A stretch of 64,000 nucleotides of DNA from a virus (taxonomy: Duplodnaviria; Heunggongvirae; Uroviricota; Caudoviricetes). The notes beneath the pieces are model-generated. The model worked only from the letters and a program-made list of their open reading frames with translations. It was not told where the DNA came from and searched no databases. Below are positions 904 through 19,240 of this stretch, piece by piece. Location: the IMG/VR virus record IMGVR_UViG_2778260992_000001, one strand, 5' to 3'. The translations under genes were made by a program, and so were the position numbers. Every line of letters starts with the position of its first letter. Position 1 is the first letter of the stretch.

Positions 904-1461
904 ATGACAACGATTGTTGCAGGCATCGATATCGAGTCTACGGGACTGGATTTCCTTGCTGGTCATAAAATTATTGAAATCGCAATTACCCGCTATGAAC
1001 TGGAGACACAGAGACATATTGATAGTCTGGAGATGCGTTTTAACCCTCGCAGAAACATAGATCCGAAAGCTCAAGCCGTTCATGGCATTTCATTGGAACA
1101 GCTCGCAGCTGAACCTTTGTTGTCAAATCATGCCAGCGAAATTGGCGCTTATATGGGGGCATGTAGTGCGTGGATTGCTCATAACGGCGAAGCGTTTGAT
1201 ATACCATTTATTCGGCACGAGTTTTCAGGGTATGGAGTAAGACTGCCAGACGTTCCTGTTATAGATACTATGTTATCGGGATTGTGGGCCACAGAAGACG
1301 GTAAACGTCCCCGCCTTGAAGAGTTGGCCTTCTCTCTTGGCTTTATATACGATCATGCCAAAGCACATAGTGCCTTATATGACACAAACTTAATGATGCA
1401 ATGCTTCTTTAAGGCACGTAATAAGTACGGATTTTTTAAATTACCCTCTGAAATTGTGTAA
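904..1461 (+). CDS. DnaQ-like (DEDDh) 3'-5' exonuclease
   Basis: Exo I motif IDIESTGLD, Exo II HNGEAFDIPF, Exo III HSALYDT in translation. Confidence 0.65.
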   Translation: MTTIVAGIDIESTGLDFLAGHKIIEIAITRYELETQRHIDSLEMRFNPRRNIDPKAQAVHGISLEQLAAEPLLSNHASEIGAYMGACSAWIAHNGEAFDIPFIRHEFSGYGVRLPDVPVIDTMLSGLWATEDGKRPRLEELAFSLGFIYDHAKAHSALYDTNLMMQCFFKARNKYGFFKLPSEIV

Positions 1462-1465
1462 AGCA

Positions 1466-1505
1466 AAAGCCTACTTTAAAGAGAGTTTAAAGTAGGCTTT
1501 CTTTT
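1466..1505 (+). terminator. rho-independent terminator-like hairpin
   Basis: inverted repeat aaagcctactttaaa / tttaaagtaggcttt followed by cttttaaa. Confidence 0.5.
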
Positions 1506-13717: not shown

Positions 13718-14097
13718 TGCATAAATCAGTAGCCGGTGAGCTTCAGAAGGAAGTCGATAATACCACTGATCTATTGGACGATATTTTAAGCATTCTCGCG
13801 CTGCTTGAGGCTGGCGATTGGTCAGAACATTGCACTAAAACAGAGCTAGGCGGTCGGCTTGAAAGAGAGATTACACGACTGATTAGCGATGCCCAAAATG
13901 ATTTGTCACCTGAGCATCTCCCCTGCGATGTAGTTCTTGTGCCAGGGATGAGGATACACGAAGGCGTCAGAACGAAAACATTATTAACCGCATTACAGAG
14001 AAGAGCCGAACTAAGCTCGCGGATAAAGTTGATGCCATCCAAAATATTTGATGTCGTCAAATTTACGCCATCGCAACATACTGAGAGAGATAAATGA
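13714..14097 (+). CDS. hypothetical protein
   Basis: 127-aa ORF, coupled. Confidence 0.45.
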   Translation: MMHKSVAGELQKEVDNTTDLLDDILSILALLEAGDWSEHCTKTELGGRLEREITRLISDAQNDLSPEHLPCDVVLVPGMRIHEGVRTKTLLTALQRRAELSSRIKLMPSKIFDVVKFTPSQHTERDK

Positions 14098-14720
14098 GCA
14101 CGGTAGCGAAAGATCTCACAGAAGATATTCTCAATGAAATTATTGCTGGTGCAAATACCTCGCTTGAGCAACTTCTTGCGTTAGCACTGAGAGCCGAACG
14201 TCGAGACAGAAATCGTTTTTATGAGCGATTACCAGGGAAGCGACCAGATAGATCGGATGAAGAAGGTTGCGATATAGACTACATGGAGCCTTCAGAGATT
14301 TATCAACTTGGTAAAGATGACGGCTGGAACGCTTATCACGATGCTGTGATGAAGTTGGATGAAAAAGTTAAACCTCTTTCTCGACCGGTAGATCACGGTT
14401 TCCGCGATAACTGCGAATGCTCTAGTTGCCAGACCACGGCCCGTATTTGTTCCGAATTGACAGATAAGTCCAGCCTAATCTACGAAGTTAATGTAGGCGG
14501 TAATACATGGGTCGAATGCACAAGAGCTGCATACGTAAGAGCAAAAGACAAGGGTGAATTAACCAGAGTTGTTACCCATCACCCAAATAATGAGCTTAAA
14601 GATCACCAGATTAGAGAACTGGTGAACGAGTTGCGGGATATTGCGGTTCAGTACCACGGAGCGCAGCAATTGCGGGAGAAAATTGCCAGAGCAGTGAACA
14701 ACTCAGTCCGTAAAAAATAA
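14094..14720 (+). CDS. hypothetical protein
   Basis: 208-aa ORF, last gene of operon before hairpin. Confidence 0.5.
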   Translation: MSTVAKDLTEDILNEIIAGANTSLEQLLALALRAERRDRNRFYERLPGKRPDRSDEEGCDIDYMEPSEIYQLGKDDGWNAYHDAVMKLDEKVKPLSRPVDHGFRDNCECSSCQTTARICSELTDKSSLIYEVNVGGNTWVECTRAAYVRAKDKGELTRVVTHHPNNELKDHQIRELVNELRDIAVQYHGAQQLREKIARAVNNSVRKK

Positions 14721-14737
14721 GCAATAGTACGATAAAG

Positions 14738-14762
14738 AGGCCCCATGCTCTTGATGGGGCCT
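14738..14762 (+). terminator. terminator-like hairpin
   Basis: aggccccatgctcttgatggggcct. Confidence 0.4.
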
Positions 14763-15160
14763 GTAGCAACTAGCGTTATGGACGCTGGTTTACGTACTCA
14801 ATGATCGCTTTGATAATCGCGAACATCGGCGGCACGATTTTGAACAGTAAGTTAACCATAACAGGCCTCACTTAGTTTTATCGCGCCTAGCTGCAAATAC
14901 CTTTGGGCTTGCCTTTGCAGTTGCAATATCTGTAGTCGCCAGATACTTACGGCACGATTTCGAGTTAAGGTAAGGTTTTAGAGTCACCAAAAACCTGGAC
15001 TTAAATCTTCTTTGAGAACAACGATGTTTGGTAAATGGTCATTATTACCTAGCATGACGGCTCAACGTTTCTTGATGAATCCAGTACATTCGGTTAATCT
15101 TAGCTCAGTCGCCAGATACTTATGGCTCAGGAACAGAGGCGCAAACTCTGTTTCCTTTTA
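14763..15160. repeat. ORF-poor region with duplicated ~20-bp modules
   Basis: agtcgccagatactta at ~14934 and ~15105; ggcacgattt at ~14826 and ~14952. Confidence 0.35.
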
Positions 15161-15162
15161 AA

Positions 15163-15190
15163 AAGCCCAGCCTAGTCAACTGGGCTTTTT
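15163..15190. terminator. bidirectional rho-independent terminator
   Basis: aaaaagcccagcctagtcaactgggcttttt (A-run, GC stem, T-run). Confidence 0.55.
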
Positions 15191-15485
15191 AATGTCCGTT
15201 TTTAACCAAATGTACCCACAATACCGCAACATCAGTGTCTTGCGAATTAAGATAGGATTTATAGAGACTATGTGCAAGTGCATAACTTTGTGGATAACTC
15301 GTAAAGGAAAAAGTGGTTTCCGCGGACATTAGTTCAGACAAGGAGTCTGGGAAAGTCAATGGGAAGTAAAAATTTGTTAAAAATAACGTTTGTTGGAATT
15401 GTATATATTTATGCCTTTCAATAGTTAGCATCTTATTAACATCTTTTTTAAGAGATAGAGTTCAAAAATATATAGCTTCAACATA

Positions 15486-15505
15486 TACTGTATGCATATA
15501 CAGTA
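15486..15505. promoter_or_regulatory. LexA (SOS) box
   Basis: tactgtatgcatatacagta fits CTGT-N8-ACAG, ~17 bp upstream of the UmuD'-like ATG. Confidence 0.7.
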
Positions 15506-15521
15506 TTAAGAGGCGAGTATT

Positions 15522-15911
15522 ATGGGCTTCCCTTCTCCTGCGGCGGATTATGCTGAGAGCCGTATTTCTCTTGATCAGCAGATAATTAGACATCCTTCAG
15601 CGACCTACTTCATGAGGGCAGCTGATAGTCATCATCGTGAGGGAATATTACAGGGTGCATTGCTGGTGGTCGATTCCTCACTTACCCCGGTTGATGGTTC
15701 TCTGCTTGTATGCGCTCTGGATGGGGAATATCGCGTAAAAAGATACCGGAAGTATCCACGTCAGCATCTGGAGGATTTAAGAACCGGTAAGAAGGAAGCA
15801 TTGCCAAAGGATGACGATGGATGCACGGGCAGCAATGCCGTGTTTGGTGTGATCACTCACATTATCAACGACGCAAGAAGTGGCGAGTTTGATGATTGTC
15901 CCGTGATGTAG
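15522..15911 (+). CDS. UmuD'-like (HumD-like) S24 peptidase-fold protein, pre-processed form
   Basis: begins MGFPSPAADY, i.e. at the position equivalent to the UmuD Cys-Gly cleavage site; contains conserved Ser (ADSHH) and a candidate Lys (RVKRYRK); no umuC downstream. Confidence 0.65.
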   Translation: MGFPSPAADYAESRISLDQQIIRHPSATYFMRAADSHHREGILQGALLVVDSSLTPVDGSLLVCALDGEYRVKRYRKYPRQHLEDLRTGKKEALPKDDDGCTGSNAVFGVITHIINDARSGEFDDCPVM

Positions 15912-15948: not shown

Positions 15949-17049
15949 TCACACTGCGCGGAATGCGATTTCGCCAGGTATTACTTCACCTTGCCAATAC
16001 ATTTGGGCAGCAACGCGATCTGCGAGGTCACGATAAATAGCCGTAAATTCGCTATCTGGACGACTAATAACGGTTGGTGTTCCGTTATCCAGATCTTCAC
16101 GAAGAGAGATATGAAGTGGCATTTGGCCTAACAACTGCGTGTTGTATTTCTCGGCCAGTTTCTGTGCGCCACCGGTGCCAAAAATTGGCTCGTGATGACC
16201 GCAGTTACTGCAAATATGCACACTCATGTTTTCAACGATACCCAGTACCGGCACTTCGACTTTTTCGAACATCACAATGCCTTTCTTCGCATCGATCAGC
16301 GCGATGTCTTGCGGCGTAGTTACCACAACCGCACCAGTTACAGGAATGTTCTGCGCCAGCGTCAACTGAATATCACCAGTGCCCGGCGGCATATCGAGAA
16401 CGAGATAGTCCAGATCAGGCCACAGTGTTTCCTGCAACATCTGCATCAGCGCCTTGCTGGCCATCGGTCCACGCCACACCATTGCATTGTCGTCGGTGAC
16501 CAGATAACCAATAGAGTTGGTTGCCAGGCCATGAGACATGATAGGTGCCATGTGAGTACCGTCAGGTGAGGTTGGACGTTGGTTTTCCGAGCCCAGCATG
16601 GTTGGAATTGATGGACCATAGATATCGGCATCCAAAATACCAACTTTCGCACCTTCAGCAGCCAACGCCAGTGCCAGGTTTACCGCCGTGGAGGATTTAC
16701 CCACGCCGCCCTTGCCTGAGCTGACGGCGATAATGTTCTTCACGCCATTAATGCCTGGTTGGTTTTTGACGCGCTTAAGCGTGGCAATGTTGTACGACAG
16801 CTTCCAGTCAATAGCCTTTGCGCCAGTGATACGGAGCAGATCACCACTACATTGCTCTTTCAGGTCTTCAAAAGGCTTATTCCACACGAAAGGCATGATT
16901 AGTTCGACATGCAGTGTGTCATCCATCAACGCAACATGGTGTAACGCTTTAAGCGTAGTCAGGTTGTGTTTCAGGGTTGGGTGCTGAAAATTAGCCAGCG
17001 TACCGGCTACCATTGCTCTCAGGGCATCCGGCGATTTGGACTCGCTCAT
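15949..17049 (-). CDS. apbC: iron-sulfur cluster carrier ATPase ApbC/Mrp
   Basis: 366-aa translation with Mrp/NBP35 P-loop SSGKGGVGKS and CxxC (CSNCGHH); recognised as enterobacterial Mrp from recall. Confidence 0.9.
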   Translation of the reverse strand: MSESKSPDALRAMVAGTLANFQHPTLKHNLTTLKALHHVALMDDTLHVELIMPFVWNKPFEDLKEQCSGDLLRITGAKAIDWKLSYNIATLKRVKNQPGINGVKNIIAVSSGKGGVGKSSTAVNLALALAAEGAKVGILDADIYGPSIPTMLGSENQRPTSPDGTHMAPIMSHGLATNSIGYLVTDDNAMVWRGPMASKALMQMLQETLWPDLDYLVLDMPPGTGDIQLTLAQNIPVTGAVVVTTPQDIALIDAKKGIVMFEKVEVPVLGIVENMSVHICSNCGHHEPIFGTGGAQKLAEKYNTQLLGQMPLHISLREDLDNGTPTVISRPDSEFTAIYRDLADRVAAQMYWQGEVIPGEIAFRAV

Positions 17050-17206: not shown

Positions 17207-19240
17207 ATGACCCAAGTCGCGAAGAAAATTCTGGTGACGTGCGCGCTGCCGTACGCTAACGGCTCAATCCACCTCGGCCATATGCTGGAGCACATCCAGG
17301 CTGATGTCTGGGTTCGTTACCAGCGAATGCGCGGCCACGAGGTTAATTTCATCTGTGCCGACGATGCCCACGGTACGCCGATCATGCTGAAAGCACAGCA
17401 GCTTGGTATCACACCGGAACAGATGATTGGCGAAATGAGTCAGGAACACCAGACTGATTTTGCAGGCTTTAACATCAGCTATGACAACTATCACTCGACG
17501 CACAGCGAAGAGAACCGTCAGTTGTCCGAGCTTATCTATACTCGCCTGAAAGAGAACGGTTTTATTAAAAACCGCACCATCTCTCAGCTGTACGATCCGG
17601 AAAAAGGCATGTTCCTGCCGGACCGTTTTGTGAAAGGCACCTGCCCGAAATGTAAAGCACCGGATCAATACGGCGATAACTGTGAAGTCTGCGGCGCTAC
17701 TTACAGCCCGACTGAACTGATCGAGCCGAAATCGGTAGTTTCTGGTGCTACGCCGGTAATGCGTGATTCCGAACACTTCTTCTTTGATCTGCCTTCTTTC
17801 AGCGAAATGTTGCAGGCATGGACCCGCAGCGGTGCGTTGCAGGAGCAGGTGGCAAACAAAATGCAGGAGTGGTTTGAATCTGGCCTGCAACAGTGGGATA
17901 TCTCCCGCGATGCGCCGTACTTCGGTTTTGAAATTCCGAACGCACCGGGCAAATATTTCTACGTCTGGCTGGACGCGCCGATTGGCTACATGGGTTCCTT
18001 CAAGAATCTGTGCGACAAACGCGGCGACACTACCAGCTTCGACGAATACTGGAAGAAAGACTCCACCGCCGAGCTGTACCACTTCATCGGTAAAGATATC
18101 GTTTACTTCCACAGCCTGTTCTGGCCTGCCATGCTGGAAGGCAGCAATTTCCGCAAGCCGACCAACCTGTTTGTTCATGGCTATGTGACGGTGAACGGTG
18201 CGAAGATGTCCAAGTCTCGCGGCACCTTTATTAAAGCCAGCACCTGGCTGAATCATTTTGACGCTGACAGCCTGCGTTACTACTACACTGCGAAACTCTC
18301 TTCGCGCATTGATGATATCGATCTCAACCTGGAGGATTTCGTTCAGCGCGTGAATGCCGATATCGTGAACAAAGTGGTTAACCTGGCCTCCCGTAATGCA
18401 GGCTTTATCAACAAGCGTTTTGACGGCGTGCTGGCAAGCGAACTGGCTGACCCGCAACTGTACAAAACCTTTACTGATGCTGCTGAAGTGATTGGTGAAG
18501 CATGGGAAAGCCGCGAATTTGGTAAAGCGATTCGTGAAATCATGGCGCTGGCTGATCTGGCTAACCGCTATGTCGATGAACAGGCTCCGTGGGTGGTGGC
18601 GAAGCAGGAAGGGCGCGATGCCGATCTGCAGGCGATTTGCTCTATGGGCATTAACCTGTTCCGCGTGCTGATGACGTACCTGAAACCGGTACTGCCGAAA
18701 CTGACTGAACGTGCAGAAGCATTCCTGAATACAGAACTGACCTGGGATGGTATCCAGCAACCGCTGCTGGGCCATAAAGTGAATCCGTTCAAGGCACTGT
18801 ATAACCGCATCGACATGAAGCAGGTTGAAGCACTGGTGGAAGCATCCAAAGAGGAAGTAAAAGCCGCTGCCGCGCCAGTAACTGGCCCACTGGCAGATGA
18901 TCCGATTCAGGAAACCATCACCTTTGACGACTTCGCCAAAGTTGACCTGCGCGTGGCTCTGATTGAAAACGCGGAGTTTGTCGAAGGTTCTGACAAACTG
19001 CTTCGCCTGACGCTGGATCTCGGTGGCGAAAAACGTAATGTCTTCTCCGGCATTCGTTCCGCTTATCCAGATCCACAGGCACTGATTGGTCGTCACACCA
19101 TTATGGTGGCCAACCTGGCTCCGCGTAAAATGCGCTTCGGTATCTCCGAAGGCATGGTGATGGCTGCTGGCCCCGGCGGGAAAGATATCTTCCTGTTAAG
19201 CCCGGATGCTGGTGCTAAACCAGGCCACCAGGTTAAGTAA
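17207..19240 (+). CDS. metG: methionyl-tRNA synthetase
   Basis: translation from [29 protein letters not shown] (HIGH) through KMSKS and C-terminal tRNA-binding domain; appears near-identical to E. coli MetG as recalled; divergent from apbC as in the host chromosome. Confidence 0.95.

Follow-up and report, generated by a model that had tools for sequence, protein, structure and literature searches.

In divergent, non-overlapping type I toxin–antitoxin (TA) loci, the antitoxin RNA is complementary to the long 5′ untranslated region (UTR) of the toxin mRNA and not to its Shine–Dalgarno (SD) sequence or coding region (PMC4147584). For one of these loci, dinQ, mutually exclusive leader elements that open and close the SD have been shown experimentally (PMC5066626). 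Here we describe a ~460-bp cassette (positions 14738-15193) within a 64,000-nucleotide stretch of Caudoviricetes DNA (IMG/VR record IMGVR_UViG_2778260992_000001; hereafter the window, meaning this whole 64-kb stretch), flanked by humD and by the gene that ends a plus-strand operon. The cassette holds a 27-codon peptide gene on the minus strand, a candidate toxin, and on the plus strand a predicted small RNA (sRNA), a candidate antitoxin, whose 5′ end repeats a site in the leader of the peptide mRNA (Table 1). Architecturally it matches the 'non-traditional' divergent type I loci tisB/istR-1, shoB/ohsC, zorO/orzO and dinQ/agrB, although by sequence it appears to belong to no described family, and we consider it probable that it represents a new family of type I TA systems with a divergent, non-overlapping layout.

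The likeness to dinQ/agrB extends to a 27-aa single-helix peptide, a long structured leader with mutually exclusive pairings predicted on the SD, and a divergent, non-overlapping sRNA complementary to the leader far upstream of the SD; the same direct-repeat picture is seen at the dinQ/agrB locus of MG1655 (L052). Genes of the dinQ-like dql group, which occur on enterobacterial chromosomes and plasmids, also mostly lack annotation. The cassette differs in having one sRNA gene instead of two, a complementarity of 20-25 nt versus ~31 nt, and no LexA box at the promoter of the small open reading frame (ORF). Membership of dinQ/dql was ruled out by comparison of the cassette and its family profile with MG1655 dinQ-agrAB (best blastn E-value 1.2, no nhmmer match) and of the peptide profile with DinQ (hhalign probability 0.2%), and when 5,426 E. 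coli genomes were searched by distant blastn, the plasmid cassette alone was recovered, never chromosomal dinQ. With tisB/istR-1 the cassette shares a divergent gene pair, an sRNA 5′ region pairing ~100 nt upstream of a sequestered SD (PMC4147584) and a hydrophobic or amphipathic peptide of 27-29 aa, and a standby-site mechanism is plausible for it as well. tisB is, however, LexA-controlled and chromosomal, whereas the cassette resides on plasmids and phage-plasmids and lacks a LexA box of its own; it has no match to Rfam IstR, and the peptide profile aligned with TisB at an hhalign probability of 10%.

Other type I systems resemble the cassette in part. Like hok/mok/Sok of plasmid R1 it is plasmid-borne, its antisense RNA is predicted to contact a target loop through the 5′ tail, its start codon is predicted to be locked by long-range pairing and a leader frame ends on the toxin SD; the shared plasmid location suggests post-segregational killing. 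Sok, however, is antisense to and overlaps its target, whereas the cassette genes do not overlap, Hok is a protein of ~50 aa with a periplasmic domain as against 27 codons here, and neither a Pfam Hok nor an Rfam Sok match was obtained. The Ldr/Fst superfamily has in common with the cassette a short peptide, a conserved proline in a hydrophobic helix and a basic C-terminus, and in a comparison with LdrD hhalign aligned LAAPILAGIITAAIVSWWRNR with the family's l-pPv--Ii--li-y-n-R at a probability of 8%. The Rdl and RNAII antitoxins are cis-encoded or convergent, unlike the divergent, repeat-based cassette, and the peptide gave no Pfam match to Ldr/Fst. The two hhalign values (8% for Ldr, 10% for TisB) are weak and non-significant, and homology to either is not supported. 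A literature search on the peptide and seed sequences, and on type I TA systems of SSU5-type or other phage-plasmids, returned nothing relevant.

Co-variation of the seed and its leader target

The relatives on which the comparative analyses rest were obtained by distant blastn of plasmids, which returned versions of 67-77% identity in Citrobacter, Enterobacter, Klebsiella and Kosakonia plasmids, and by pattern scans, which contributed further IMG/VR contigs, one Citrobacter genome and metagenome contigs. The total sample comprises 46 copies with 27 distinct cores and 12 distinct seed–target pairs; individual loci are cited below by number (L003 and so on) where they need to be told apart.

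Two direct repeats lie in the cassette. The long repeat (AGTCGCCAGATACTTAYGGC) spans 20 nt at 14934-14953 and 15107-15126 with 19/20 positions identical, and these are its only two matches in the window even when three mismatches are allowed (0.01 expected). The short repeat (CGGCACGATTTYGA) occupies 14830-14843 and 14950-14963 with 13/14 positions identical (0.07 expected). Both pairs had been recognised in an earlier reading of the sequence alone (the original prediction), as a 16-nt repeat with its second copy at ~15105 and as two copies of ggcacgattt with the first at ~14826. The pairs themselves are real and non-random, but the lengths and positions given here replace the earlier ones (second long copy at 15107, first short copy at 14830). 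In related genomes, whose comparison was named at the time as a check, both copies of the long repeat are present in all 12 distinct variants.

The two long-repeat copies co-vary among these variants, which come from metagenomes and from plasmids of Escherichia, Citrobacter, Enterobacter and Klebsiella. Seed positions 2-5 read GTCG, GCTG or GTAG, A or G stands at position 8 and A or T at position 10, and positions 12-16 read ACTTA, ACATT or AACAA, while nucleotides 2-20 of the sRNA are paired with the leader target in 12/12 variants. In the alignment of target plus seed, 94.5% of cells are paired and 9 of 25 pairs show changes on both sides, a result not reached by any of 500 shuffles; slid registers of target against seed gave 30-37% pairing. 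The one-sided differences within nucleotides 2-20 (sites 11, 17, 18 and 19) all lead to G·U pairs when the plus-strand copy 2 is set against the minus-strand copy 1, and the opposite strand assignment would turn the same four sites into A·C mismatches. This asymmetry, together with the promoter and terminator anatomy, sets RNA pairing apart from protein-binding repeats and gene conversion. Protein-binding sites had been offered in the original prediction as one of two functions for the region; this is not supported, as a DNA-site model does not predict copy differences that are G·U-tolerated in a single strand pairing. The other, that small RNAs are encoded here, is supported by a promoter-to-terminator unit for a structured RNA of ~85 nt.

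These data support the interpretation of the 20-nt agtcgccagatactta repeat as the 5′ seed of the sRNA (15107-15126) plus its target in the leader; the repeat is direct in the DNA because the two genes are divergent and their RNAs complementary. The target (14953-14934) is located in a predicted hairpin ~75-95 nt ahead of the start codon (ATG 14859), and the loop of this hairpin, GCGACUA, faces the 5′ end of the sRNA. The predicted free energy of the cognate seed–target duplex is -37.8 kcal/mol, compared with -12.0 ± 3.1 kcal/mol for a shuffled seed. The variants fall into specificity groups, namely the window type, an ACATT type, a GCTG type and a Klebsiella GGTTAACAA type, between which duplexes are up to ~20-30 kcal/mol weaker, with the Klebsiella type forming a separate specificity group.

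The candidate antitoxin RNA

A consensus promoter, TTGAWG-17-TAAKMT, was the top match in 12 of the 13 representatives scanned, and the repeat begins exactly 7 nt after its -10 element, placing the predicted +1 at A15107, the first base of the repeat. For the remaining representative (L005) the scan ranked another site first, and TTGTAG/TAAGCT was read from the alignments at the corresponding place. The predicted transcript folds into three hairpins with a minimum free energy of -35.4 kcal/mol (z = -5.25), six pairs carry compensatory changes in the alignment, and the plus strand is the only one on which several of the G·U pairs would be valid. The window contains exactly one match to a covariance model of 13 variants, at 15107-15190 (96 bits). 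The right-hand terminator, with a 13-bp perfect stem and T-run, scored on the plus strand.

Scanning the region against Rfam 15 (E ≤ 10), which we take to include IstR, OhsC, Sok, RdlD, Sib, SymR and others, gave only chance-level matches attributable to the terminator, for example to RNAI (21.6 bits, where the gathering score is 47). A tRNA/tmRNA search likewise found none, in line with the failure of the original prediction to recognise a tRNA cloverleaf. A 49-aa plus-strand ORF (15012-15161) was rejected as a gene, since its length and stop vary in relatives (21, 55 and 49 aa), the region between contains indels, and its apparent conservation tracks the sRNA promoter and seed. As a separate observation, a palindrome (CCACTACATGTAGTGG / CCCTATATGTAGTA) is kept ~25-50 bp past the sRNA terminator in L015, L003, L004, L005 and L032. 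It persists in variants outside E. coli though the neighbouring genes differ, and it has no clear counterpart in the window (GACACTGATGTTGCGG, ~15225-15240).

The candidate toxin gene and its leader

The cassette region had been described as an ORF-free spacer, a view that does not hold: the minus strand contains a conserved 27-codon ORF with GAGG 6 nt upstream, and one short-repeat copy lies inside it. Between the window ORF and that of L015 there are nine synonymous and two non-synonymous changes, both of the latter conservative, so that the DNA has diverged and the protein has been kept. Over all pairs of equal-length ORFs 54% of differences are synonymous, compared with 21% expected, and the excess is also present among close relatives (2:1, 6:3 and 4:1). 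The peptide is under purifying selection, and 13/13 peptides align without internal gaps on L-L-x-K-x-x-x-P-x-x-x-I...Y/F-x-N/K-x-R. Relatives encode a 'B' type small ORF, as in the window, an 'A' type (MQMLLLFLKLAHPVAVIIMTLLGYWKDR), or both in tandem behind a single leader, A preceding B. The tandem form occurs in Enterobacter, Klebsiella and some Citrobacter versions, its second ORF having its own GGAG ~7 nt upstream, and the window and the Citrobacter L004 type have a single small ORF. The grand average of hydropathy (GRAVY) is 0.86 overall and 1.44 in the core for the window peptide, and 1.02 and 2.16, respectively, for the type A paralogue. Profile hidden Markov model scans of four members of the peptide family against Pfam-A and NCBIfam matched no family at E ≤ 10, which covers the known type I toxin families (Hok, Ldr, Fst, TisB, Ibs, ShoB, DinQ/Dql, ZorO and others) to the extent that they are included in these libraries.

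Both hairpin terminators that were earlier said to bound the region exist, but the left one (14738-14762) is more than the end of the upstream plus-strand operon, which it also closes, as it is in addition the minus-strand terminator of the small gene; a GC-rich hairpin with a T-run directly follows the last small ORF in every relative. At the other end of the mRNA, aligned Citrobacter variants carry TTTACT/TTCACC-17-TTTAGT (score 7.8) where the window has a weak candidate -10. No LexA box was found at the ORF promoter, the only one being that of humD (~15484-15506). Between the sRNA promoter and the mRNA 5′ hairpin, L015 and L022 contain tandem motifs (GGTTTAGAAC twice, and GCTTTGGAAC) and an extra small hairpin (GCGAAATTTTCGC), to which the window sequence at this place is unrelated. 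This is the fastest-evolving part of the cassette, and it may hold lineage-specific control of the ORF promoter.

The loop motif UUGGUGA of the mRNA 5′ hairpin is invariant across the family, and in relatives the alignment reads U·G pairs and one U-A to C-G change in its stem, valid on the minus strand only. The CUGCAAA/UUUGCAG hairpin never varies, which is conservation and not covariation. The SD is predicted to pair with codons 4-5 (probability of being unpaired 0.04). Folding of the nascent leader pairs E1, the 5′ copy of the short repeat, with its complement E2 in 7 of 8 variants, and in the folded full-length mRNA E2 is paired instead with E3, the copy in the ORF, closing the translation start. 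A thermodynamic switch thrown by sRNA binding was rejected, as SD accessibility did not change in constraint folding and neither helix covaried beyond controls; a kinetic, co-transcriptional switch between mutually exclusive pairings remains plausible in view of the nascent-leader folds.

A leader reading frame is open in the window from GTG 14987 to TGA 14870-14868. In most variants such a frame ends on the toxin SD or ATG, and in seven there is an ATG inside the target. Its start is not conserved (AAG in the window versus ATG in relatives; shifted in L005, L032 and L044), which speaks against a conserved mok-like leader ORF. The frame of L044 ends in TAATG, overlapping the toxin start, and those of L004 and L032 extend over the toxin ORF. 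By analogy, hok/mok-like coupling through the leader frame is a possibility.

Table 1 Predicted features of the cassette and its surroundings (window coordinates unless a locus is named)
Feature	Position	Strand	Basis or remark
208-aa hypothetical protein	14094-14720	+	last gene of operon before cassette
Intrinsic terminator of small-ORF mRNA; stem 14762-14754 / 14746-14738, 9 bp, tail CTTTAT	14728-14762	-	terminator scoring
Candidate toxin gene, 27 codons, MVNLLFKIVPPMFAIIKAIIEYVNQRP; ATG 14859-14857, TAA 14778-14776	14776-14859	-	coding constraint, SD
E3, AUCGUGCC, short-repeat copy in ORF, codons 7-10 (plus coordinates 14830-14843)	14831-14838	-
SD, GAGG, 6 nt before ATG	14866-14869	-	sequence and folding
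Leader reading frame, 40 codons, TTG/GTG in UUGGUGA loop to TGA overlapping SD	14868-14990	-
E2, GGCGCGAU, complementary to both short-repeat copies	14880-14887	-	folding
Leader hairpin CUGCAAA...UUUGCAG	14891-14920	-	7 pairs, 100% paired
Candidate target site (long-repeat copy 1), GCCGUAAGUAUCUGGCGACU on mRNA	14934-14953	-	repeat, co-variation, folding
E1, AUCGUGCC, 5′ copy of short repeat (plus coordinates 14950-14963)	14951-14958	-	overlaps target by 3 nt
mRNA 5′ hairpin AGGUUUU / AAAACCU	14973-14996	-	folding and alignment
Weak candidate -10 of small-ORF mRNA, GATTTAAGT	14999-15007	-	inferred +1 ~14994
sRNA promoter; -35 TTGATG 15072-15077, 17-nt spacer, -10 TAATCT 15095-15100	15072-15100	+	sigma-70 promoter scan
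Candidate antitoxin sRNA, ~84-87 nt	15107-15193	+	promoter, fold, compensatory changes, covariance model
sRNA parts: seed, nt 1-20	15107-15126	+
sRNA parts: stem-loop SL1	15111-15126	+
sRNA parts: stem-loop SL2	15129-15156	+
sRNA parts: terminator (followed by U-run)	15158-15192	+
humD, UmuD′-like	15522-15911		LexA box precedes
apbC (mrp), full-length	15949-17049	-	host-type housekeeping gene after humD
metG, full-length	17207-19240	+	host-type housekeeping gene after humD
Tandem A-then-B small ORFs, L003	2302-2493	-	one leader
Tandem A-then-B small ORFs, L005	2306-2496	-	one leader
Tandem A-then-B small ORFs, L032	~1298-1495	-	one leader

Proposed mechanism

The assignment to type I draws on a gene for a small (<60 aa) hydrophobic protein, here of 27 codons and under coding constraint, next to a promoter-to-terminator RNA unit (15072-15193) with extended complementarity to its leader through a 20-nt seed in 12 variants. 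The divergent subclass is indicated by an sRNA +1 at 15107 on the plus strand, a probable mRNA 5′ end at or below ~15000 on the minus strand, and complementarity within the long 5′ UTR. From the observed anatomy, conservation, co-variation, strand assignment and coding constraint we infer a scheme for the transcription of the cassette, the mode of repression, the relative stabilities of the two RNAs and the toxicity of the peptide.

The minus strand would give an mRNA of ~260 nt comprising the 5′ hairpin, a structured leader of ~135 nt, the SD, the 27-codon gene for a hydrophobic peptide and the terminator; the plus strand would give an sRNA of ~85 nt that starts ~110 bp upstream of the mRNA start and points away from it. 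Translation of the peptide would normally be locked at its start, the SD pairing with codons 4-5 and GGCGCGAU with codons 7-10, and expression would require an upstream event, which may be ribosome standby, translation of the leader frame, or capture of GGCGCGAU by the leader AUCGUGCC on refolding. The single-stranded 5′ end of the sRNA would meet the loop of the target hairpin and zip up to a 20-bp duplex (-38 kcal/mol), stopping the upstream event and probably exposing the mRNA to RNase III. On loss of the element the short-lived sRNA would decay first, and the peptide would then harm the membrane (post-segregational killing); phage exclusion is an alternative role.

Several points weigh against this scheme. 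Both RNAs and the peptide are predictions from the DNA, and the toxicity of the peptide is presumed, as is repression of translation by a duplex that forms 75-95 nt before the start codon. Hydrophobicity of the window peptide is only moderate (GRAVY 0.86), its putative helix containing lysines, a glutamate and Pro-Pro, and the mRNA lacks a convincing sigma-70 promoter or -35 element in the window (best scan score ~4-5). Co-variation of the repeats could in principle come from gene conversion, and the specific case for RNA pairing consists only of the G·U asymmetry at four sites together with the anatomy of promoter and terminator. The alignment accommodates the E1:E2 and E2:E3 helices, but their covariation is no greater than in shuffle controls, and blocking the target in silico leaves SD accessibility at equilibrium unchanged.

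Alternative explanations

The most serious alternative is that the sRNA regulates a small membrane protein with a regulatory or accessory role, and that the cassette encodes no toxin and is no addiction module. The anatomy and co-variation would be explained just as well, the window peptide has an amphipathic and not a strongly hydrophobic character, and no known toxin family was matched. We nevertheless consider it unlikely, as a very small hydrophobic ORF combined with a buried SD in a long structured leader and a divergent, dedicated sRNA with a perfectly matched 20-nt seed is the specific signature of type I TA loci (PMC4147584), and the cassette moves between plasmids as a unit and lies near phd and rep genes in Citrobacter plasmids; tandem duplication of a peptide gene under one leader is common for toxins too.

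We give a low probability also to the proposal that the cassette is a strain-specific incompatibility or exclusion determinant among competing phage-plasmids, an idea suggested by the joint drift of seed and target into specificity groups. In it the leader drives one or two peptides, possibly through a hok/mok-like frame with its start in the sRNA target, and the AUCGUGCC elements act as a co-transcriptional switch. If this were true, the sRNA of a resident element would protect against cognate incoming toxins alone, and toxins of another group would be lethal.

It is far less probable that the sRNA mainly regulates host or phage mRNAs in trans, with the leader copy serving as a decoy, sponge or secondary target. 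Many sRNAs do act through 5′ seeds of similar size, and the cassette adjoins the SOS-controlled humD, but the window offers no further seed match at up to three mismatches, and the seed drifts freely as long as the leader copy follows, the opposite of the constraint that a conserved external target would impose.

Very little credence attaches to the idea that a protein binds the repeats, 173 bp apart, as iterons, operators or partition sites in the DNA, the ORF and hairpins being incidental. Such sites might be expected from direct repeats of conserved spacing (152-179 bp) on plasmids, sometimes near rep genes; there are, however, just two copies, which differ from each other only by transitions of the kind that keeps the RNAs paired, and one of them starts exactly at the +1 of a conserved promoter, with a covarying hairpin and terminator after it. 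The seed changes at up to nine positions (Klebsiella type), which would call for a co-evolving protein, and no such gene travels along; nor would an incidental ORF be under coding constraint.

That the cassette is a decaying remnant without present function is scarcely credible, since, apart from a weak or unrecognisable ORF promoter in the window, it is 95-99% conserved in ~115 E. coli plasmids, its ORF is intact with a synonymous excess even among close relatives, its promoter, seed and terminator are all intact, and no frameshifts or stops in the ORF and no seed–target mismatches were seen in the 46 copies.

Distribution and genomic context

The window matches a ~110-kb circular E. coli plasmid (NZ_CP014490.1, NZ_CP195946.1) at 100% and Escherichia phage Cyrano (108 kb) at 94%, and is therefore a phage-plasmid. 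Distant blastn against the 5,426 E. coli genomes found the cassette stretch conserved at 95-99% in ~115 of them, so that it is carried by ~2% of complete E. coli genomes, with a plasmid location for 106 of its 116 E. coli places. No annotated feature underlies the cassette match in any of the ~115 E. coli records, and the peptide ORF is without annotation in the plasmid records listed as containing it, where the one annotated feature under a hit is a longer, overlapping 'hypothetical protein'; three other plasmid records also have an overlapping 'hypothetical protein'.

The neighbours of the cassette differ by host, being humD in the ~110-kb phage-plasmids of E. coli and phd and repA/repB in Citrobacter plasmids, and a Klebsiella copy adjoins IS3 on a 261-kb IncFIB plasmid. 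Similarity among relatives runs from the left terminator to the right terminator, and with similarity bounded in this way and the flanking genes unrelated, the cassette is therefore a discrete mobile unit. In the E. marmotae relative L035 it is instead the gene for the der GTPase that lies just downstream of the cassette. An E. coli-type copy is also present on a contig labelled 'MAG: Bacillota bacterium' (L037, JAEWTL010000044.1), which is probably mis-binned or contaminating enterobacterial phage-plasmid DNA.

Between the cassette and humD, a segment of ~120-130 bp upstream of the latter (15273-15400) is ~89% identical to a chromosomal locus in 5,423 of the 5,426 complete E. coli genomes. 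RefSeq annotates ypaB at the chromosomal counterpart, which we take to be the nrdA upstream region. Phages P1 and P7 carry the same fragment (upfN/upfO), with two predicted DnaA boxes in the P1 annotation, and the segment is regulatory DNA captured from the host. As at P1 humD/lxr, the humD start is preceded at ~15 nt by a perfect LexA-box palindrome (TACTGTATGCATATACAGTA, 15484-15506), which a promoter-like TTCAAA-17-TATACT overlaps.

Implications for phage-plasmid biology

Phage-plasmids of this type are often found in E. coli from clinical and animal sources, and their maintenance is poorly charted. They are known carriers of resistance genes. If the cassette is a working type I TA system, it would add a maintenance or exclusion function to these phage-plasmids, and would give a class known to be under-detected by homology searches two new families, one of toxin peptides and one of antitoxin sRNAs. 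The natural co-varying seed–target pairs would then constitute a ready set of compensatory mutants for antisense control exerted far upstream of the SD.

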